From IMG/VR virus record IMGVR_UViG_3300050343_000256, positions 20,979 through 84,978 of that record: 64,000 nucleotides of DNA. One strand, given 5' to 3'. The stretch is from a virus. Position numbers and translations under genes: made by a program. Numbering within the stretch: the first letter of the stretch is position 1; each line of letters starts with the position of its first letter. Below, piece by piece: positions 6,847 to 48,305 of the stretch. Below the pieces are notes generated by a model, which did no database searches, was not told the origin of the DNA, and saw only the letters and a program-made list of their open reading frames with translations.

Positions 6847-7104
6847 ATGAACGGATCATTCGAGATAAAAGCCATGCTGCGTAGCACTGAGCCTTCCTGT
6901 CATGTGCTTCTCGAATGTCAAAGGGCATTAGAAGCCAGCAAAGACATTAAGCTCCACCGACTTATCGGCCAAGCATTGGATCGCTGGGGAATTTCGAAGG
7001 ATGAACTGAGGATACGGAATCGCCTATGTGAGCTGGACTTTAATGCTTCTCCAGTTTCCGAAGCCTGCTCTCGTGATCTTGCAATCGAGTATCAAGGGCA
7101 TTAA
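6847..7104 (+). CDS. hypothetical protein, possibly a distant paralog of the upstream gene
   Basis: ALDRWGISKDEL resembles CLNNWGMDRDQM. Confidence 0.4.
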   Translation: MNGSFEIKAMLRSTEPSCHVLLECQRALEASKDIKLHRLIGQALDRWGISKDELRIRNRLCELDFNASPVSEACSRDLAIEYQGH

Positions 7105-39570: not shown

Positions 39571-40392
39571 TTAAAAAAGACGTTCAGCTTCTGCTGCGTT
39601 CTGAAAATGCTTTCTCATTGTTTCTCGAAGCGTATTCATTCCATTGAGCCCAGGAATGCTTTGAGCTTCTGGGTTTTGCAGCTCACTAGTCTTTTGATTA
39701 TTGCTCTCGGTAATCCGCCCCGTGCCGCCCATGATCGCTGCGGCATTCTTTATTGCTGCTGCCTGGTCTGCGCCTGCGGTCATGCCGTTTGCAAGAACGC
39801 TATTGGCATCACCTGAACCCTCACCTTCGTATGAGTTGCCGAACTTCTTGTTGTATTCACGCATCGCCAAAGCTGGATTGGCCTTAGCCCAAGTCTCCAT
39901 GGGGCTGCCCTTTTCGTAGCCAAGGGCCTCGATGATTTCGGGATTAGCGCCAATACCAGCTTGACGTTGCTGAGTATTGAACTGGGCTAGTCCAGCGGCA
40001 TCACCGCCGTAGCTGTTGGTCCTGGCAGCTTCGAGGATTGCCTTACCTTCATCAGTACTCCAGATGTCAGCACCTGGGGCGTACTGCTGCCTCATTGAGG
40101 TCAGCGCAGAATCACTGGAGTTGGCATCGTCACTGCGAACTGGAGGTTTTAAATCATTAGGAGGTGCTGGCTTGTCAAATTCAGCAGCTAGACGCTTAAT
40201 CGCATCCATGTCCAGGTCAGCGCCCTGGTCGTCACGGCCCGAAGAGTCGAGTACCGCCTCTGTCGGAGAAACCGGCTTAACAGGTTTTTGCCTGTTAGTG
40301 CGTGAGTACCCGTCAGGGTTGCGATTATTTATGCCGCCGCTAATGGCGTCAAAAATTTCACCAAGTAATGTGCGGCTATACCGTTCTGCCAT
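39571..40392 (-). CDS. hypothetical protein
   Basis: 273-aa ORF; WAKANPALAMR. Confidence 0.6.
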   Translation of the reverse strand: MAERYSRTLLGEIFDAISGGINNRNPDGYSRTNRQKPVKPVSPTEAVLDSSGRDDQGADLDMDAIKRLAAEFDKPAPPNDLKPPVRSDDANSSDSALTSMRQQYAPGADIWSTDEGKAILEAARTNSYGGDAAGLAQFNTQQRQAGIGANPEIIEALGYEKGSPMETWAKANPALAMREYNKKFGNSYEGEGSGDANSVLANGMTAGADQAAAIKNAAAIMGGTGRITESNNQKTSELQNPEAQSIPGLNGMNTLRETMRKHFQNAAEAERLF

Positions 40393-40395
40393 GAG

Positions 40396-40881
40396 TTACC
40401 TCCAGTTCATTGATCCTTGGGCTTGCATCACTCGAGTGCCCACGGCAGTGTCTGCGGGGCCTGGTACGGACATGATGAATTCCGAACCAGCTCTGTCGTA
40501 GGCGTAGCGCCTAACTTCATCGCGGCGATAATTAGCCACGTACAAGACTTCGGCGAGACGATCACACTCACGTGTGTAAATCTCCCAGTAATCTTTGTCC
40601 GCTTTTAACGGCTCGGACTGGAAGATTGCACGATCCGTGTCACCCGTAATGCGCTCGACACGACTGGGCTGTGGCTGATCTTCAACGCGAAAAACCTGCG
40701 AAACCTTAAAAGATTTATCGCAGCGATCCATGTGTTCCAGGATGCGCGAATAGAAATAACTATCCGGCACTCTGGCCATCGCCTCTTCCAGACGGGCAAT
40801 ATCACCCGCCGGGAGGTTAGCTCCGACGTTGTATCCCAAATGGAAGCGACAACGGCTTTTGTCGTAGTCGTTGAGCTCCAA
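40396..40881 (-). CDS. putative head completion/adaptor protein
   Basis: DKSRCRFHLGY N-terminus, helical; lies downstream of the capsid genes. Confidence 0.55.
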   Translation of the reverse strand: MELNDYDKSRCRFHLGYNVGANLPAGDIARLEEAMARVPDSYFYSRILEHMDRCDKSFKVSQVFRVEDQPQPSRVERITGDTDRAIFQSEPLKADKDYWEIYTRECDRLAEVLYVANYRRDEVRRYAYDRAGSEFIMSVPGPADTAVGTRVMQAQGSMNWR

Positions 40882-40916
40882 TGTTATTCAGCGACCTTTC
40901 AGTAATTCTATGCGAA

Positions 40917-41348
40917 TCAGTCGATGTAAATTAAGTCAGCTCCGATCACCTCGTCCCAGTCGACACGACCGATCTTTTTAAGCTGCTCAAGATTCTTGAA
41001 TCGTTCGCCAGGAAGAGACAACCTCAGCTCAACAATCTTCTTAGCCGTTGCGTAGCCGATGCCTTTGACATGCTTGGCGATACCTTCAGCAGTACCGAGA
41101 TTGAGATTCAATCTCGTGTCGGAAGGAATGATTGTTTCGGGAAGCTTGTCTTCGTCTACTTCGACCTCTGCACTCTGAGGTTCGATTGAGACTCCAGTTC
41201 TACCTTTCCCCGCCTCGTAGCCGACTAAGTCAGCAAGAGCTACATAAGCAACTGCCCCGCTGGAGTTCTTCACCATTGCCCACTCTTTGTCGTGGTGTGA
41301 AATGAACTCGACCAACTGGCCAGTCTTGGTGTTTTGAAACAGCGCCAT
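40917..41348 (-). CDS. helix-hairpin-helix (ComEA-like) DNA-binding protein
   Basis: LNLNLGTAE.IA..VKGIG.ATAKKIVELR....F.NLEQL. Confidence 0.8.
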   Translation of the reverse strand: MALFQNTKTGQLVEFISHHDKEWAMVKNSSGAVAYVALADLVGYEAGKGRTGVSIEPQSAEVEVDEDKLPETIIPSDTRLNLNLGTAEGIAKHVKGIGYATAKKIVELRLSLPGERFKNLEQLKKIGRVDWDEVIGADLIYID

Positions 41349-41354
41349 ACATGC

Positions 41355-41389
41355 AATAAAAGAGGGCGGCTGGTGGCCCAGACGCCCTC
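41355..41389 (-). terminator. terminator of the capsid operon
   Basis: minus strand GAGGGCGTCTGG-gcca-CCAGCCGCCCTC-TTTTATT. Confidence 0.75.
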
Positions 41390-41412
41390 ATACTAGAGAA
41401 AAGATTTGAGAA

Positions 41413-42060
41413 TCAGCTCTCAGTCAAGTAAGGCAGCATCGTGTTATCGGCGCTGGCTACTTCGTCATCGAGATAGTACGAGACTTCACAGATGATTGGA
41501 GTGCCGCCAGATGCAGTAGAGCTCAGAGTGTTAGAGCTGGCTACGTTGCCTGCGGATGTGCAGAGGAACACTTTCAGCGTCAGATCGCTGGAAAGAGTTG
41601 CACCTGCAGCGCTGCTTGCTCGGCCAGTGCCAGGAGCAATAGTTGTACTTGCAACGGTCAATGAAGCGGCCACAGTACCGAGAGCGGTAGCGGCGATTTG
41701 ACCAGTTGCAGTTGCAGTTGCAGCTGAAGCAAGCTTCAAGGTCTCGGTGTTAGTGCCAACGAGACCAGAAGTTGCAGTGCCTACGCCTTTTTCTTTGCGA
41801 GTGTCAGACACACGCAGTCCAAGGGAATAAACAGTTGCGCCCTGAGGCACAGTCAGTCCAGTGATGTCAGGGCGAACCTTGTCATCAGCACGCATGTCGG
41901 GGCTAGGGATGACAACGTCGAATGACGCTGCACCAGTAGAACCAACGAGCGCATAACCAACCTTGTGGTAGTACACACGGCCAGGAACGGCTACAACAGG
42001 CTGACCCTGGTAGCTACTCAGATCGGTAACCCAGTTACCGGGGAAAATTTTCTTTGCCAT
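41413..42060 (-). CDS. putative capsid decoration/minor capsid protein
   Basis: Ala/Thr/Ser-rich beta protein right after the MCP, with a strong AGGAG RBS. Confidence 0.65.
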   Translation of the reverse strand: MAKKIFPGNWVTDLSSYQGQPVVAVPGRVYYHKVGYALVGSTGAASFDVVIPSPDMRADDKVRPDITGLTVPQGATVYSLGLRVSDTRKEKGVGTATSGLVGTNTETLKLASAATATATGQIAATALGTVAASLTVASTTIAPGTGRASSAAGATLSSDLTLKVFLCTSAGNVASSNTLSSTASGGTPIICEVSYYLDDEVASADNTMLPYLTES

Positions 42061-42076
42061 TGTTTAGTTACTCCTA

Positions 42077-42523
42077 TCAATAAACGAAGGAATAAGCAAT
42101 GGTGATGAAGTCGCGGTTAAGCACTTCAAAACCAGCAAACAGCGACCAGATCATGATGATGAATCGTGAGAAATCATCATTGTTGTTCAACAAGATCTGA
42201 GCGTTGTTACCACCAATGCCAACGCCGACTGCCTGAGGACCGAAGAAAATCATCGGAGCAGCAGTGGTCACCGTGTTGGTGATCGATGCGTCGTTAACAG
42301 TTACTTGCAGAGATTTCTCAGCAAGGTTGGTGGATTCAAACCAGCGAACTCCCTCAAATAGGAATCCCGTAGGCATGATTGGCTGTCCAGCCACGAAACC
42401 AGCCTGTCCGTAAGCGGGACCCATGCCATAGAAGAAGTTGGCATTAGGAGCCTGCTCAGGTTGCAGGGGGTTGACCATGCCATTACCCGCGTAGCGAGCA
42501 ATTTCACGGAAGGCGTCATTCTG
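42077..42523 (-). CDS. major capsid protein exon 3 (148 aa, QNDAFREIARY...AYSFVY)
   Basis: in frame with exon 2 after removal of intron 2; GFLFEGVRWFES, FFGPQAVG and DDFSR capsid-like motifs. Confidence 0.9.
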   Translation of the reverse strand, partial: QNDAFREIARYAGNGMVNPLQPEQAPNANFFYGMGPAYGQAGFVAGQPIMPTGFLFEGVRWFESTNLAEKSLQVTVNDASITNTVTTAAPMIFFGPQAVGVGIGGNNAQILLNNNDDFSRFIIMIWSLFAGFEVLNRDFITIAYSFVY

Positions 42524-42779
42524 CAGTGTTGTTATCCCAGAAGCTCTTTATCTCCTGGTTCTCAATCTTTGTCATCGATTGAGCTCAGACTATATCTTCA
42601 TCCCTGTGGGATGGAGGGCACTCGTGGATCCATTACTGAGTTTCCTCTCGGGATCTAGTCGTTGAACCTTCCAGATTGTGATCTGGCTTGGCTGCTGATT
42701 CCCCGAATGTGTGAAGGGGTCCCAGCAATTCACCCTCTGTTCACCCGGCTGTTACCAACCGAGGGCGCAAGAATCGTTT
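42524..42779 (-). ncRNA. group I intron 2 (256 nt, no ORF) in the major capsid gene
   Basis: P AAUUGCUGGG, Q AAUCAGCAG, R GUUCAACGACUA, S AAGAUAUAGUC; exon ends in U (CGU) pairing GCGU/GCGC; terminal G; P10 AUUCU/AGAAU. Confidence 0.93.
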
Positions 42780-43457
42780 ACGCAGGTGCATCATTGCAGT
42801 TGGATCTGCAATGCAACGGTAATAACCATCAGCAAAGGTTGGGACGTTGCGCTTCCGCATGTCCTTAACAACCTGCAGCAAGTCTGTCTTTACGTCAAAC
42901 TTGGCTGATTCACCGGCTGCGTAGTTAAGGAACGGAGCGGCGGATGCCTTGGTTTTGCCGAGTGGGTAGTAATAACCACCAGCATTATCGCTAGCAGGAC
43001 CAGCAGCTTCTGCTTTGAAAAGTTCGTCAGCAAAAACGCGATCACGCCAACGGCGGTAATCGTCCAACAGTGTCAGTGAACCGATTGACTGGTGGAAGAC
43101 GTTCAGGTTGCCGGTATCAAGCAGCAAGCGCTGAGCGGTGAGCAGAGTTTCACGAGCAACCTTAAAGGTCGAAGGTGAAGTTGCATCGGTAGGGTCTGCA
43201 GGTCCGGTGTATTCCTTGAGGTTCACCAGAACCTTGTCTTTAACAATAGAGCGGCTAGATGCTGTGCCCAAAGTTTGATCAGCAGTGCGCTCACGGGAAT
43301 CCTTGTTACCAGGATTGCCCCAGAAGCGGTAGCGATCAAGTTGGACAGTCTGACCGGGTTGCTTCGCGAAATCGTGAACAACCACAGGCTCTACGGCCAT
43401 CTCGATGATATAACCGGGATGTGGGCGGTAGAGCTCAGCACCTAGCAGCTTAGGGAA
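42780..43457 (-). CDS. major capsid protein exon 2 (226 aa, FPKLLGAELY...AMMHLR)
   Basis: open frame between the two introns; HDFAKQPGQTVQLDRY capsid N-terminal pattern. Confidence 0.9.
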
Positions 43458-43667
43458 CGTGTATATCCACTGCTTTCGCAGGGCACCGACTATATCTTCA
43501 CCTTTAAAAGGGCTGGACGCTTAATCCTGTTATTAAGGAGACTTTACTCCTCAGGTAGTCTGTGAACGTTCCTTAGGTGTACCCAAGGCTTCGCTGCTGA
43601 TTGCCATATCTTTCGACTTAGGGTTCCAGCAATTCATCCAGTTTTACAACGACCAGGTGTTTTACCA
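43458..43667 (-). ncRNA. group I intron 1 (210 nt, no ORF) in the major capsid gene
   Basis: P AAUUGCUGGAA, Q AAUCAGCAG, R GUUCACAGACUA, S AAGAUAUAGUC; P1 AACGAU/GUCGUU with U-G at the splice site; P3 CUGGAUG/CGUCCAG; P9 CUGC-GAAA-GCAG; terminal G. Confidence 0.93.
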
Positions 43668-43685
43668 ATCGTTATCAATCCACAT
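43668..43685 (-). CDS. major capsid protein exon 1 (MWIDND)
   Basis: ATG preceded by GAGGA; joins exon 2 in frame after splicing. Confidence 0.85.
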
Positions 43686-43769
43686 GGATCGAAATTCCTC
43701 AGCTGTAAGGGTTTATAAGCACATCGTTGTGCTTCTTATTACTATAAGGGTGTTCTATAGGGAGCAAAT

Positions 43770-44477
43770 TTGGACGTAGTTGATGTCCGTGGATTACTTG
43801 GTCTTCTTTTAACCGATGGGAGTCTTGTCCCATATCGCACTCCTGGCGGTGGTTATATTCAGTTGACTCTTACAACAGGGATCAAGCAGTCGACATTTCT
43901 CGAGGAGAAGGTTGCAGAATTTAAGCAATTTCTACCTTCAAAAGCTGTAATTACTCCCTACAGGAGTTCTCCTAGGGCTAACGGCAAGCAGACGTTGGTT
44001 CTAAGGTTTCGAGTTTCGACCGACAAGCTCCGCCCTGTGTACAACTTGCTTTATCCATGTGGAGAGCGATTAATCAATCAGACGGCTCTCGACTTGTTAG
44101 GAGCAAGCGCTGCAGCATGGTGCTGGGCGCAAGGCGCTCGAGTTCACAAAGACATGAGCTCTGAGCTATCCCGCGTTGGCAATACATACGTAGAAGGCGC
44201 ACGACTGCAAGCATGGTTCGAGATGTTGACCGGCGCAGAGTCAGATCTCAGAGATCACAGGCAGAAGCCACGTCTATATTTCAAGCCGGGAGAGACCAAG
44301 AAGGTGCAAGACGCACTAATAAATTATGCGCCATCAAGTCGACTACATCTATTTACCGGAGTAACCCCAGATGTCAGCTCAATTCGTAGCTCGCGCACTG
44401 AGTTATTGCATGGGAGTGGGATCGATATCTTTAAAAGGGAGACGGCAAAGGCCTTGGCTTCAGATCGTAAGGAGTGA
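43770..44477 (+). CDS. free-standing double-motif LAGLIDADG protein (I-SceI-like), motif 2 degenerate
   Basis: LLGLLLTDGSL motif 1; YNLLYP; AAAWCWAQG in place of LAYWFMDDG. Confidence 0.8.
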   Translation: MDVVDVRGLLGLLLTDGSLVPYRTPGGGYIQLTLTTGIKQSTFLEEKVAEFKQFLPSKAVITPYRSSPRANGKQTLVLRFRVSTDKLRPVYNLLYPCGERLINQTALDLLGASAAAWCWAQGARVHKDMSSELSRVGNTYVEGARLQAWFEMLTGAESDLRDHRQKPRLYFKPGETKKVQDALINYAPSSRLHLFTGVTPDVSSIRSSRTELLHGSGIDIFKRETAKALASDRKE

Positions 44478-44958
44478 GACAGAGCGTCCCTACTTAAGTC
44501 ATCAGCTAAAACAGCTGCGAGAAGCTCACTTAGGTGCGCTGGAATTTGACCTGGACGTACTTCCTTGCGACGGCTTTTACGATGACGTTCGCCTGCGAGT
44601 CAGGAGTGACGAGCTATACCGAGCCTATGAATTGATGTACCCACGAGACAAGAAAGTGGTAACGCCTCAAATTGTCGGATTAACCGGAATCGTAGGGATG
44701 TCAGCGCTGTGGTCAGACAGAGGCAGGATCGTCGGTAAAACAGCAAAGATCAGATCACGACTAACGCCAGAAGCGAACATAGCTTTGGTCGATTGGTGCA
44801 ATAGCCACGGCTTCGAGAGCAAACACATCGCAAGACTGGACCGCAGCTACGGAGTCCAGTTCACTCCAGACGCAACTCGGAAATTTATTAGCGCCATACG
44901 GCCACACACGCACAAGATCATGAGAAAGACTTTTAAACAGGCTTCTTCTCGTCGATAA
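44371..44958 (+). CDS. second LAGLIDADG-like protein, degenerate
   Basis: ALSYCMGVGSI motif 1 lacks the acidic residue; YELMYPRDKKVV; MSALWSDRG motif 2; FISAIRPH. Confidence 0.7.
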   Translation: MSAQFVARALSYCMGVGSISLKGRRQRPWLQIVRSETERPYLSHQLKQLREAHLGALEFDLDVLPCDGFYDDVRLRVRSDELYRAYELMYPRDKKVVTPQIVGLTGIVGMSALWSDRGRIVGKTAKIRSRLTPEANIALVDWCNSHGFESKHIARLDRSYGVQFTPDATRKFISAIRPHTHKIMRKTFKQASSRR

Positions 44959-45112
44959 GATAAACGGGCTCCGAAGAAGAACTACGTCAGGAGCTCATAC
45001 ATGACATTCCAGGAGTTCGGGTTTTTGTAGTTTCAACGGACTGGCAACTGATCTGCCCCGCGTTCGGCCAATGTGGGGGTGGCACCTGGAAGATTTCTCT
45101 TACTTTTTGCGC

Positions 45113-45307
45113 ATGACTGACAGCCAAGAATGCACCGATGGCTTCTGCCCAGCGACAAGGCCCGTCGCAGAGAAGGATCCTAAGGATGTCTTTTTTCAGC
45201 CGATCACGGAAGAAAAAGCAAAGTCTGAGCCGAACATGCATGAAAAATTTATTCAGTTTTGCGACGACAATCCCAATGATGTCGAATGCAGGCTGTTTGA
45301 CGTATAG
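45113..45307 (+). CDS. cp12: CP12-like protein (C-terminal domain)
   Basis: FIQFCDDNPNDVECRLFDV matches the CP12 C-terminal Cx8C; start placed at ATG 45113. Confidence 0.75.
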   Translation: MTDSQECTDGFCPATRPVAEKDPKDVFFQPITEEKAKSEPNMHEKFIQFCDDNPNDVECRLFDV

Positions 45308-45355
45308 TCCTTTTTTGTTTTTCTTAGACTGACGCAATAACTTAGTTGCGGCAGA

Positions 45356-45796
45356 ATGGCTGTCTTTAATAAACTCAATGGCTTTGTCGAGCACTTGAGT
45401 GAGGGAGTTCACAACCTCGGCAGCGATCAACTCGTGCTCGCACTGAGTAATGTTGCCCCAGCTTCAGAGACAACTCCACCTTCATCTACTACCGCTGGCT
45501 GTGTCTTAGCAAACGTCACTGAAATCAGCTACGTCGGACTCAGCTCACGAGATCTAACAACGACAAGCTCAGCTCAGTCATCAGGTACTTATCGGCTGGT
45601 ACTTGACGATCTAACTCTTAGCTCCACGGGCACTGTTGGACCTTTCCGGTACATCTATCTCTACAACACCACGCCAGTCAGTCCAGCAGACCCGCTGATT
45701 GGCTTTTTCGATTACGGAGCAAACCTCACCCTTAATACGGGTGAGAGCTTGACAATCGACTTTGACCAAGCGTCAGGCGCAATCACTCTGGGTTGA
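45356..45796 (+). CDS. phage tail-associated structural protein
   Basis: GPFRYIYLYN...LIGFFDYG..LTL..GES.TIDF. Confidence 0.7.
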   Translation: MAVFNKLNGFVEHLSEGVHNLGSDQLVLALSNVAPASETTPPSSTTAGCVLANVTEISYVGLSSRDLTTTSSAQSSGTYRLVLDDLTLSSTGTVGPFRYIYLYNTTPVSPADPLIGFFDYGANLTLNTGESLTIDFDQASGAITLG

Positions 45797-45816
45797 TCCA
45801 CCGTTAGAGGTTAAGT

Positions 45817-47844
45817 ATGCCAGCGGTTTATTCCGATCTCGCCGCTGGGACGGCATCGTTTACATCTACATCCAGTAACGCCGAATTGATTTGTCGGCGA
45901 GAGATTGCTGGCACTGGAACCTTTAATGCAAAAGTCAACGCTGTTTACAGATTAAACAGCGATGTCGCATTCGTGGGCGCAAACACAAGCGAGAATGCGT
46001 CGGCTGTCATGCCGAGCCACGAGCCTAATGACCTGCTTCTCGTATTAGCAGTAAACGCAAGTGGGAGCACAACTCCAACAGCTCCAGCAGGGGAGGGATG
46101 GGAAACCCTGCGATCACATGGAGGGAGCCTGCTTGGCTATCGACTCGGATACAAGTTTGCCAAGACGAATACTGAAACGGTAGGCGGCTGGGCTGGATCG
46201 ACCAGGACAACAGCCGTGGTCTACAGAAACGTTCGCAAAATACCTGGGGAAACGGTTAGTTCAAAAAACTTTTTATCGACCAAAATCCTCTATCCGACTG
46301 TAGCTACAGAAAACTCTGGCGGTACTCGAGTTGTATATTTCAGCACTAGTAAGCAAAACCTAGATTCTGCCTTAACACCCGCAGATACAACCACAAGAAT
46401 ATCCACTCAAGCGATCAGTGGCTCAGCTCCAGGCATTGGAGTACACGATCGACTCCTGCCAAACGGCACTGAATCCCTAGGCGGTAGCAATACCATTGTT
46501 GCCTCAACCAAATCGCAAGTTATTGCGGTCGAGCTGCTCTCTGGCGTACCAGAGATGGATGCAGAATCGAGCACATACGCGACAAGCCTGAATGGCGACA
46601 TATTTAAAAATACGCTTCTACTTACTAGCAGGAGATATAACGTAACCCTGCCTCAAGTCTTTTGGCTATACAAAAGCTTTTTCTCTACATCTGCAGGATC
46701 ATTCTCAAGCGCCATTTCGCCGGTAGCCACGCCAAGAGGTTACTACTACGAAGGATCGGCGGGGCAGTTTAGCCTTGCAGCATCGGATGCGATCCTAGAT
46801 CGATACTTAATATTTACTCCACTAACTACAAACTTTGCATTCACTGAAGGATTAATTGAATTCGCAAAGGGATTCTTCACAAGTGCTGATCCAGCCACCT
46901 TTGCTACAACTTTCTACGCCTCACTTGTTACTCATGAAGCACTCCTGCAAACGCTGTCGGGAAGCTATAACGCCGAAAGCCGGAATACTCTTTTAAAAAG
47001 GGCGTTAATAGAAGCTCTTGCTGCAGCGATATTCAATAGCTCAACCTCGCAGGTAGGCTTCAGAAATGACACGCCATTCCCCACCAATGGCGGTCCATTT
47101 AGGCCATCCGTTCCGTTTCATCTGCAGCCGAGCCTTGTCAAGTACAACTCGGTAAGCAAGTCAAAGGACCTTGGAATCGTCAACAACTTCTTAGGTCAAT
47201 TTTCTGGACTAATAGGCTCTGAGACTGGAGCGCCAACTCTGTTCTTTAAAATCACGACACTCGGTACGGCTGATCTACGAATACTTATCAAACCTGTAAA
47301 CAGATTCACTGATAACTACATCTCGGTAGGCATTTTAGATAGCAACCGGAAGCCACTTTCTATAAATGACTTTGGCTTCGCTTATCGCAACGAGATAAGC
47401 AGCACCGAGAGAAAAGAATTCTTAGATCCAATGCCAGCTGGTGATTACTACTTCACGATAAGTAGCAGTCAATGGCAAAAGATCCTTTACAACGTGGAGA
47501 TCCAGGCCATTCGCTTTATGTCACTGACTGGGCTCGTAACACTAACCAACCAGTCGACCGCACGATTTGCCATATCGAAAATGTCTGGACCAGCGCTTGT
47601 CACTGGTCCTTTGCAAGCGATAATTCCAAGCAATGCTCAACTCAAGCAACCAACAGGACCTGTTCTACTAACTTCAGGAAGTCGTGGAGCTTTAACAACG
47701 CCAGAAGGAATAGCGACGATGCGAATGTTGCCTACAGGTCGATTAAAGCTCACTCATAAAATCGGTGGCGCTGCTTCAGTAAGCGGAGCGAATGTAGCTA
47801 CGCTTAGTTCAGCTCCGCCATACGGTGGTGGTTACGGCCCATGA
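45817..47844 (+). CDS. large beta-rich tail/fibre protein
   Basis: 675 aa, Thr/Ser-rich, flanked by structural genes. Confidence 0.65.
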   Translation: MPAVYSDLAAGTASFTSTSSNAELICRREIAGTGTFNAKVNAVYRLNSDVAFVGANTSENASAVMPSHEPNDLLLVLAVNASGSTTPTAPAGEGWETLRSHGGSLLGYRLGYKFAKTNTETVGGWAGSTRTTAVVYRNVRKIPGETVSSKNFLSTKILYPTVATENSGGTRVVYFSTSKQNLDSALTPADTTTRISTQAISGSAPGIGVHDRLLPNGTESLGGSNTIVASTKSQVIAVELLSGVPEMDAESSTYATSLNGDIFKNTLLLTSRRYNVTLPQVFWLYKSFFSTSAGSFSSAISPVATPRGYYYEGSAGQFSLAASDAILDRYLIFTPLTTNFAFTEGLIEFAKGFFTSADPATFATTFYASLVTHEALLQTLSGSYNAESRNTLLKRALIEALAAAIFNSSTSQVGFRNDTPFPTNGGPFRPSVPFHLQPSLVKYNSVSKSKDLGIVNNFLGQFSGLIGSETGAPTLFFKITTLGTADLRILIKPVNRFTDNYISVGILDSNRKPLSINDFGFAYRNEISSTERKEFLDPMPAGDYYFTISSSQWQKILYNVEIQAIRFMSLTGLVTLTNQSTARFAISKMSGPALVTGPLQAIIPSNAQLKQPTGPVLLTSGSRGALTTPEGIATMRMLPTGRLKLTHKIGGAASVSGANVATLSSAPPYGGGYGP

Positions 47845-47882
47845 TTTGGGCGCTGCCTAACACACTTAGATATTGAAAGTTC

Positions 47883-48305
47883 ATGGCATTTTCGCAGTAC
47901 TTTGCGACGCAAGTTCTTAACTGGGTGAAAGGTTCACCCTTCCCGACTGCGCTCGCAAATGTCTACGTGTCTTTGCATTCTGCAGATCCTGGCACTGCCG
48001 GTACAAGTGGTGATGTTACTAATACCATTACTAACTCAGTCAACAGGACGACAATCTCTAGCGCTGCATTAAGCGCAGTTTCAGGAGCTTCTGGAGGTGG
48101 TTTCGAAGTCACGAATACAGGCGTTGTTCAGCTAACGACTTCAGCCAACAACGTCACCCCAATCACAGTGACTCATTTTGGAGTTTGGGATGCAGCTAGC
48201 GGTGGCAACTTCTTAGCGTCAGGAGAATTGACTTCATCTGTAGACGTTGAAGTTGGAGACACTGTTCAATTCAATATCAACGCTATGGCAGTGAGAGTCG
48301 TCTGA
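47883..48305 (+). CDS. phage tail-associated structural protein
   Basis: VYVSLHSADPG...VTHFGVWDAASGGNFL..G.L. Confidence 0.75.
   Translation: MAFSQYFATQVLNWVKGSPFPTALANVYVSLHSADPGTAGTSGDVTNTITNSVNRTTISSAALSAVSGASGGGFEVTNTGVVQLTTSANNVTPITVTHFGVWDAASGGNFLASGELTSSVDVEVGDTVQFNINAMAVRVV

Follow-up and report, generated by a model that had tools for sequence, protein, structure and literature searches.

How does a phage make its major capsid protein when the gene lies in three pieces next to a pair of nuclease-like genes? This question is raised by IMG/VR virus record IMGVR_UViG_3300050343_000256 (84,978 bp), of which we analysed bases 20979-84978, a stretch of 64,000 nucleotides hereafter referred to as the window. 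An earlier interpretation, based on the letters of the DNA and hereafter referred to as the sequence-only reading, held that the capsid gene is split by two group I introns lacking an open reading frame (ORF), and that these introns form a module with two LAGLIDADG genes encoded upstream, on the opposite strand. The answer is, very probably, that the sole capsid gene of an S-EIV1-like marine cyanophage, of the HK97-type “major head protein” kind, carries two small, mobile, ORF-less group I introns, and that the LAGLIDADG pair is independent of them. The nearest cultured relative is Synechococcus phage S-EIVl, with 76.9% amino-acid identity over the second exon of the capsid gene.

The capsid gene lies on the minus strand and is split after nucleotides 18 and 696 of a 1143-nt coding sequence (CDS). 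Exon 1 (43668-43685) provides six codons, with an ATG start and a GAGG sequence about 11 nt upstream. Exon 2 (42780-43457) contributes 226 codons and matches positions 58-222 of phrog_1357, the profile of a major head protein, and exon 3 (42077-42523), with 148 codons and the stop codon, matches positions 249-344 of the same profile. Removal of 43458-43667 (intron 1, 210 nt, minus strand, inserted after CDS nt 18 at a position hereafter referred to as site A) and 42524-42779 (intron 2, 256 nt, minus strand, inserted after CDS nt 696, hereafter site E) joins the exons (18 + 678 + 447 nt) in a single frame of 380 amino acids with one terminal stop. The capsid profile A5 matched exon 2 over positions 6-233 (E = 1.9e-151) and exon 3 over positions 232-380 (E = 2.4e-89), and an intact capsid orthologue matched phrog_1357 with an E-value of 1.3e-21; no match was found for the capsid profile among PDB sequences. 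The split gene is the only capsid gene of this genome, because profile A5, built from intact orthologues, matched the genome at just two places, exon 2 and exon 3.

The positions of both junctions were assessed in related loci, for which the best 80 of at least 597 IMG/VR relatives were kept. Exons 2 and 3 abut without a gap in 79 of the 80 loci with both exons, the exception being L050, where a 371-nt intron occupies this position; the locus without exon 3 (L053) is one in which the contig ends there. The codons of exons 1 and 2 are contiguous in the DNA of 71/80 loci and, of the remaining nine, seven carry an intron at this junction and two begin inside the gene. The S-EIVl capsid gene is one uninterrupted frame of 385 codons, colinear with the spliced product and with no insertion or deletion at either junction, and no Rfam match was found for S-EIVl. 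The boundaries given in the sequence-only reading, which restore the 380-amino acid frame, are thus confirmed by intron-free relatives and by S-EIVl, all colinear across both junctions. The intact S-EIVl frame (L003 4908-6134; KJ410740.1 60784-62010) has been annotated as a pair of hypothetical proteins, of which one is placed on the wrong strand. In another relative (L095 668-685), the capsid gene apparently begins with TTG rather than ATG, directly ahead of a site-A intron.

Both intervening sequences were recognized by the Rfam group I intron model RF00028 above its gathering score of 50 bits, at 43467-43696 (minus strand, 86.2 bits) for intron 1 and 42561-42789 (minus strand, 66.8 bits) for intron 2, and these were the only two matches in the 84,978-bp genome. 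The ends of the Rfam model are approximate, and the relatives support 43458-43667 and 42524-42779. In both introns, the U at the 5' splice site pairs with a G of the internal guide in P1, and the last nucleotide is a G; P1 of intron 1 makes use of coding nucleotides 10-18. The identification of two ORF-less group I introns in the sequence-only reading therefore holds in respect of model score, exact junctions, U.G splice-site pair and terminal G. A hairpin upstream of intron 1 (43673-43692), aligned by Rfam, was considered as a candidate for P1 and rejected: it offers no U.G pair with a U on the exon side, and the junction, as determined by the relatives, lies at a distance of 9 nt from the Rfam 3' end. 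An in-frame TAA occurs two codons into intron 1 and an in-frame TGA 12 codons into intron 2. The longest same-strand stop-to-stop frame within either intron has 53 codons, and introns of only 210 and 256 nt are too short to harbour an endonuclease gene. As the only capsid gene of the genome is split and both introns contain stops, production of the capsid protein should require two splicing events, in agreement with what had been proposed from the sequence. The two introns have only short core blocks in common (19, 19 and 13 nt); they represent two families and are not the products of a duplication.

The distribution of such introns among the relatives was surveyed by scans with a 3'-core intron pattern, Rfam searches and blastn with the spliced CDS, the junctions being read by eye. 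Eight insertion sites were found in the capsid gene, in 19 records, a count based on 80 of at least 597 relatives together with pattern-selected loci. Site A' (CDS nt 12) is occupied in L028, L057 and L067, and site A (CDS nt 18) in the window and 15 others; together they are the most occupied position, with 19 of about 28 intron copies. The other sites are B (CDS nt 107; L099, L100, L102 and L105), C (nt 144; L099), D (about nt 397; L099, the contig ending within the copy), E (nt 696; the window and L050), F (nt 849; L105) and G (nt 1049; L100). The number of introns per gene is patchy, ranging from none to at least three: L100 and L105 have three each, and L099 also has three, followed by the start of a fourth where the contig ends. 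When RF00028 was run on 78 whole relative records and the window's genome, every match fell inside the capsid gene.

Compensatory changes were scored in each family. For sites A and A', 10 of the 19 introns were aligned (alignment A3), leaving out L102 (identical to the window copy), L080 (3' deletion), L093 (contig end), L028 and the near-duplicates L048, L104, L105, L107 and L108. Compensatory changes were found at 19 of the 41 pairs predicted by RNAalifold, and the consensus comprised helices P3, P4, P5, P6 and P9 together with an extra hairpin between P7 and P3'; P7 itself is invariant and hence uninformative for covariation. The intron-2 family was represented by all nine delimited copies, from five sites (alignment A4; the site D copy of L099, cut by the contig end, was left out), and here 32 of 52 pairs showed compensatory changes. 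In this family, 93.4% of cells were paired, versus 72.4% in shuffled alignments, none of 500 shuffles reaching a value as high, and versus 29-48% in controls slid by 1-3 columns. The U.G pair at the splice site was present in P1 of all nine introns, and the neighbouring pairs co-varied with the exon at the five different sites. Each intron-2 copy therefore carries a guide fitted to its own site, because the pairs flanking the U.G change with the exon. Judged by these alignments, the predicted ribozyme folds of both families are under selection. In one subfamily of site-A introns (A3 columns 10 and 29-30), the splice-site pair is U-A (L047, L050 and L100) or C-G (L099 and L101), and the next pair, between the first U of the intron and a G, is a wobble, as read by eye.

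The introns are distributed in a manner indicative of movement. The closest relatives of the window (L004-L006), with 97% exon DNA identity, have no intron. In an exon tree of 92 rows, the presence of a 5' intron requires at least nine changes, a number to be read in the light of the 11 rows obtained by the intron-pattern search, which over-represent introns; in the unbiased subset of 80 labelled rows (the window and L003-L083; 8 with and 72 without a 5' intron), five changes are required. This tree omits duplicates and entries from the window's own genome (L001, L002, L084-L092, L094, L096 and L097) and loci covering less than 480 nt of the exon segment used (including L099, L103, L106 and L109-L111), and L016 and L049 are unlabelled for intron presence. 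The intron of L098 is 96% identical to intron 1 over 210 nt, although the exons are only 75% identical, and L102, a contig from another sample, carries a 100% identical intron 1 at the same site. All three 5' intron types occur in both clades of relatives, hereafter referred to as A and B. As the similarity between intron copies far exceeds that of the surrounding exons, lateral movement between co-infecting relatives is suggested. At sites B and G, the exon bases directly upstream (ACGACTT) are the same, as is the guide (TGGAGTCC), and the site G intron is closest to the B introns (79% identity, versus 63-76% for others). The common target bases and guide suggest reverse splicing, or an equivalent guide-directed step, as the route from one site to the other.

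Further observations concern three individual intron copies. In L080 (5817-6000), the locus of the genome G075, a copy of intron 1 (93%) is missing about 20 bases at its end, and with them the three opening codons of exon 2; at this locus, the capsid frame also stops early, at 6930, which points to either a damaged gene or a misassembly, and L098 is an intact near-twin. Two group I introns resembling intron 2 were also found in unrelated phages (L110 7590-7821, 79.1 bits; L111 3411-3654, 104.9 bits). One is situated immediately upstream of a capsid-like ORF different from the one described here and the other in a DNA-polymerase-like gene adjoining an ORF with LAGLIDADG-like motifs, these identities having been assigned by eye.

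The two genes adjoining the capsid gene lie on the plus strand. The first, lag1 (43770-44477, 235 aa, TTG start after GGGAG), encodes a free-standing double-motif LAGLIDADG_2 protein (PF03161, E = 6.4e-9) and its start lies 84 bp away from the capsid ATG, which is on the other strand, and 102 bp away from site A. The second, lag2 (44371-44958, 195 aa), overlaps lag1 by 107 nt in another frame and is its divergent paralogue: the two profiles aligned with an hhalign probability of 97.7% (E = 1.6e-12, 157 columns). No Pfam or PHROG match was found for lag2, the nearest named ESM Atlas clusters of which carry PF03161 on 17-34% of their members (score 0.94-0.95), and profile searches of PDB sequences with lag1 and lag2 gave no useful match. 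The two are tandem paralogues. The two upstream LAGLIDADG-fold genes recognized in the sequence-only reading are thus real, lag1 on the basis of Pfam and lag2 by its alignment with lag1.

Alignments of the window protein with 25 of 36 distinct lag1 ORFs (alignment A2) and with 23 of 33 distinct lag2 ORFs (alignment A1) were inspected for the catalytic acids. The Asp of lag1 motif 1 is invariant in the 26 sequences, and the acid of motif 2 is Glu in 23 and Asp in one, with Gln in the window and in L004. In lag2, the motif 1 position is acidic in only 1 of 24 sequences, and an invariant Asp aligns with the catalytic position of motif 2. As the window lag1 has lost one of the two catalytic acids and lag2 lacks one, at most nicking or binding would be expected of these proteins. 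The ORFs are intact wherever the contig allows (42 lag1 and 40 lag2). The lag1 profile search returned 311 proteins and, among the matches listed, 120 all belong to the same orthologous family (E below 1e-108), so these matches are silent on distant kin or an intron-encoded origin.

The LAGLIDADG pair heads a five-gene block divergent from the capsid gene. In clade A, lag1 is present in 42 of the 42 loci with upstream DNA, and lag2 in 40. In sister clade B, the slot is filled in 32 of the 33 loci (L051-L083; L054 has too little upstream DNA) by a gene for a 174-aa protein and a NUMOD4 gene, the L080 copy of which also matches HNH_3, and there is no LAGLIDADG gene; S-EIVl has neither the LAGLIDADG pair nor the NUMOD4-HNH gene. 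Some 1.7 kb upstream of the capsid gene, clade-B relatives also encode a full sigma-70-type factor comprising regions 1.2, 2, 3 and 4 (L070 3304-4251). The window and L006 are 74% identical over 43667-48077, which covers the LAGLIDADG block, the intergenic region and exon 1, versus 91-95% over 40384-43457 (capsid exons 2 and 3 and two downstream genes) and 78% beyond 40148. With this jump in identity at the start of the capsid gene, which forms the upstream edge of a mosaic block, the nuclease slot marks a recombination boundary.

The divergent intergenic region (43686-43769, 84 bp) contains a hairpin at 43717-43734. Among about 90 relatives, most have a stem at 49-57 nt ahead of the capsid ATG, with letters that vary widely and complementarity that is kept (for example, ACACAC/GTGTGT, GTGACT/AGTCAC and GCGAAT/ATTCGC); the loop AAGTCGA is kept in clade B. 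This hairpin may act as a stem-loop in the leader of the capsid mRNA or as a palindrome bound by a protein. A promoter and terminator scan of 41900-45500 yielded one promoter-like site, versus 3.1 expected, and nothing usable.

Are the introns and the LAGLIDADG genes linked? The sequence-only reading had joined them in a two-intron, two-protein module, in which the proteins would mobilize the introns in trans (collaborative homing) or act as maturases. The closeness of lag1 to the capsid ATG and to site A speaks for such a module, as do the concentration of intron copies at sites A and A', the sharp mosaic boundary at the capsid start (identity to L006 of 74% upstream and 95% downstream), the retention of both catalytic acids in 24 of 26 lag1 sequences and the relationship of intron 1 to the psbA introns of the F-CphI system; collaborative homing is also an established pathway, according to a review (PMC3984707). 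However, 38 of the 42 lag1-bearing loci of clade A have no 5' intron and an unchanged insertion-site sequence, so that a nuclease aimed there would cut its own genome; retention of the lag genes in intron-free relatives was the very outcome named in advance as contrary to a functional link. The frequency of 5' introns is the same with LAGLIDADG genes (4/42) as with HNH genes (3/32; Fisher's exact test, p = 1.0), and the co-occurrence expected by the sequence-only reading is therefore not seen. Every 5' intron type is also present in clade B, which lacks LAGLIDADG genes, and copies 93-96% identical to intron 1 occur in clade-B phages without lag genes. One of these, the complete 80,431-bp genome G075, carries the 93% copy with the 3' deletion, and no match was found in it with the lag1 and lag2 profiles (A2 and A1). 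Introns and lag genes are thus not inherited together, which argues against a maturase role. Site E lies about 1 kb away and no relation to the lag genes was found for it, and the window proteins themselves have a Gln at the second catalytic position (lag1) and no first acid (lag2). Taking both sides together, we judge a single module to be very unlikely; as far as the comparison of these loci goes, the lag genes are clade-wide and independent of the introns, which appear to have no dedicated partner. The nucleases may still play a looser part, by inducing recombination close to the capsid start and so helping any intron nearby to spread.

Other explanations concern the introns themselves. They might persist as regulators, with splicing setting the time of capsid synthesis or restricting it and intron 1 competing with ribosome loading, and this would fit with the use of coding nucleotides 10-18 in P1, with a stop two codons into the intron and with the frequent occupation of the site A/A' region. 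Nevertheless, 72 of the 80 labelled rows in the unbiased set have no 5' intron at all and the window's closest relatives are intron-free, so the introns are dispensable for the lineage, and we regard a regulatory function as unlikely. Alternatively, the split gene could be a dead gene or an assembly artefact, arising from a chimeric contig or a defective phage, since the genome is a metagenome assembly and the L080 deletion removes the 3' end of an intron together with three codons. This would be extremely improbable: the record ends in direct terminal repeats, with its completeness rated at 100%, all the exon frames are intact and the intron structure co-varies. Contigs from a public DNA run cross each intron and both its flanks without mismatches (42440-42827 and 43392-43686), although this run may be the sample from which the window was assembled; the identical intron 1 at the same site in L102 provides independent support, because that contig comes from another sample. 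The introns are real and very probably spliced. A broader scenario, which we put forward tentatively and hold to be rather unlikely, is that the 5' end of the capsid gene is an arena for two loosely cooperating kinds of selfish elements. The nucleases of the slot would break or nick DNA and set the recombination boundary at the capsid start; such breaks would carry the site A/A' introns between phages, including exchange with cyanomyovirus psbA introns, and guide-directed reverse splicing would let the intron-2 family colonize new sites in the late mRNA of highest abundance. If true, this would make the lineage a natural system for watching both routes of group I intron mobility.

The preferred explanation remains that of two mobile introns in the sole capsid gene, beside an independent LAGLIDADG pair. 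Each intron would pair its internal guide with the last bases of the upstream exon, with a U.G at the cut, and would splice itself from the late transcript to yield the message for the 380-aa protein. The introns belong to two mobile ribozyme families found at eight or more sites of the capsid gene and probably pass laterally between co-infecting relatives, with new sites apparently picked by guide-sequence pairing, through reverse splicing or an equivalent process. The LAGLIDADG pair fills a slot for free-standing nucleases adjoining the capsid gene, a slot taken by NUMOD4-HNH genes in the sister clade.

Several points weigh against this explanation. Spliced joints were sought in the contigs of three RNA runs and none was seen, and intron-free relatives with up to 99% exon identity would in any case mimic spliced mRNA in such contigs. 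The assignment to subgroup IA is suggested by a single extra hairpin. A U.G pair is near-universal at the splice site of active group I introns, and the U-A or C-G pairs of the site-A subfamily are unusual in this respect. Reverse splicing would need a step of reverse transcription or recombination for which no phage gene has been identified, and the target bases common to sites B and G could reflect selection for any site fitting the guide.

Two of the RNA runs (X12 and X17) yielded contigs on exon parts only, and stretches without contigs carry no evidential weight. The third (X16) also gave contigs on intron 1, and one in which 54 nt resembling the core of intron 2 are embedded in unrelated sequence. 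Letters 1-210 of a 240-letter contig from this run lie on intron 1 at 43457-43666, shifted by one base, for which both ends have the same letter, and a neighbouring contig stops at 43486. The length of this contig (240 = 210 + 30) would fit a 31-mer graph of a full-length intron circle, by arithmetic alone.

Several known systems resemble this one in part. A group I intron lying in psbA of cyanophage S-PM2 and lacking an ORF is accompanied by the free-standing endonuclease F-CphI (Zeng, Bonocora and Shub 2009, as cited in PMC3984707). Here too, a small ORF-less group I intron lies in a protein gene of a cyanophage with a free-standing nuclease gene adjoining. The nearest relatives of intron 1 in cultured phages are cyanomyovirus psbA introns, those of S-SRM01 (79.5% identity over 75% of the intron 1 length) and, with 75.8% over 72%, those of S-PM2 and S-RSM88. 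Unlike the situation in S-PM2, the host gene is a capsid gene rather than psbA, the nuclease genes are of the LAGLIDADG type, and intron and nuclease gene co-occur no more than expected by chance. The analogy with S-PM2 drawn in the sequence-only reading is therefore borne out at the RNA level, by the relatives of intron 1, but not for the pairing of intron and nuclease gene (p = 1.0).

Group I introns in phage capsid genes are already in print: Yutin et al. 2021 (PMC7886860) describe them in crAss-like phages, with one gene in five fragments. The likeness lies in the presence of group I introns within the major capsid gene of a tailed phage. The crAss-like introns were recognized through intron-encoded endonuclease domains and belong to phages of gut Bacteroidetes, whereas those described here are ORF-less, belong to a marine cyanophage lineage and have been mapped across a population. 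In Staphylococcus phage Twort, orf142 has three introns in one isolate (Landthaler and Shub 1999, as cited in PMC10136302), a parallel to the present case in that one phage gene holds several small group I introns resembling each other; the genome studied here has two, relatives have up to at least three, and eight sites are occupied. In the “Jug” jumbo phages of the gut, late or essential genes, terL among them, contain ORF-less introns about 206 nt long, splicing being demonstrated by metatranscriptome reads for 37 of 76 introns (PMC12880540). The same paper also describes short ORF-less introns alongside stand-alone nuclease genes, including LAGLIDADG genes, as here; the present phages belong to a different group, and all the introns found are in the capsid gene only. 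The intron host genes met in a full-text literature search were terL, DNA polymerase and psbA, and the word “intron” is absent from the main text of a preprint on the marine S-EIV1-like lineage (10.1101/325100).

These findings have consequences for the annotation and biology of this lineage. The capsid gene of an abundant uncultured marine cyanophage lineage would otherwise be annotated in fragments, and the gene calls can now be corrected. A marine cyanophage example is added to the phage capsid genes colonized by ORF-less group I introns. The relatives provide a population data set on the movement of such introns, with three 5' types in two clades, eight sites and retargeted guides. Finally, the locus illustrates that a striking neighbourhood, with two LAGLIDADG genes 84 bp away, is no evidence for a functional link.

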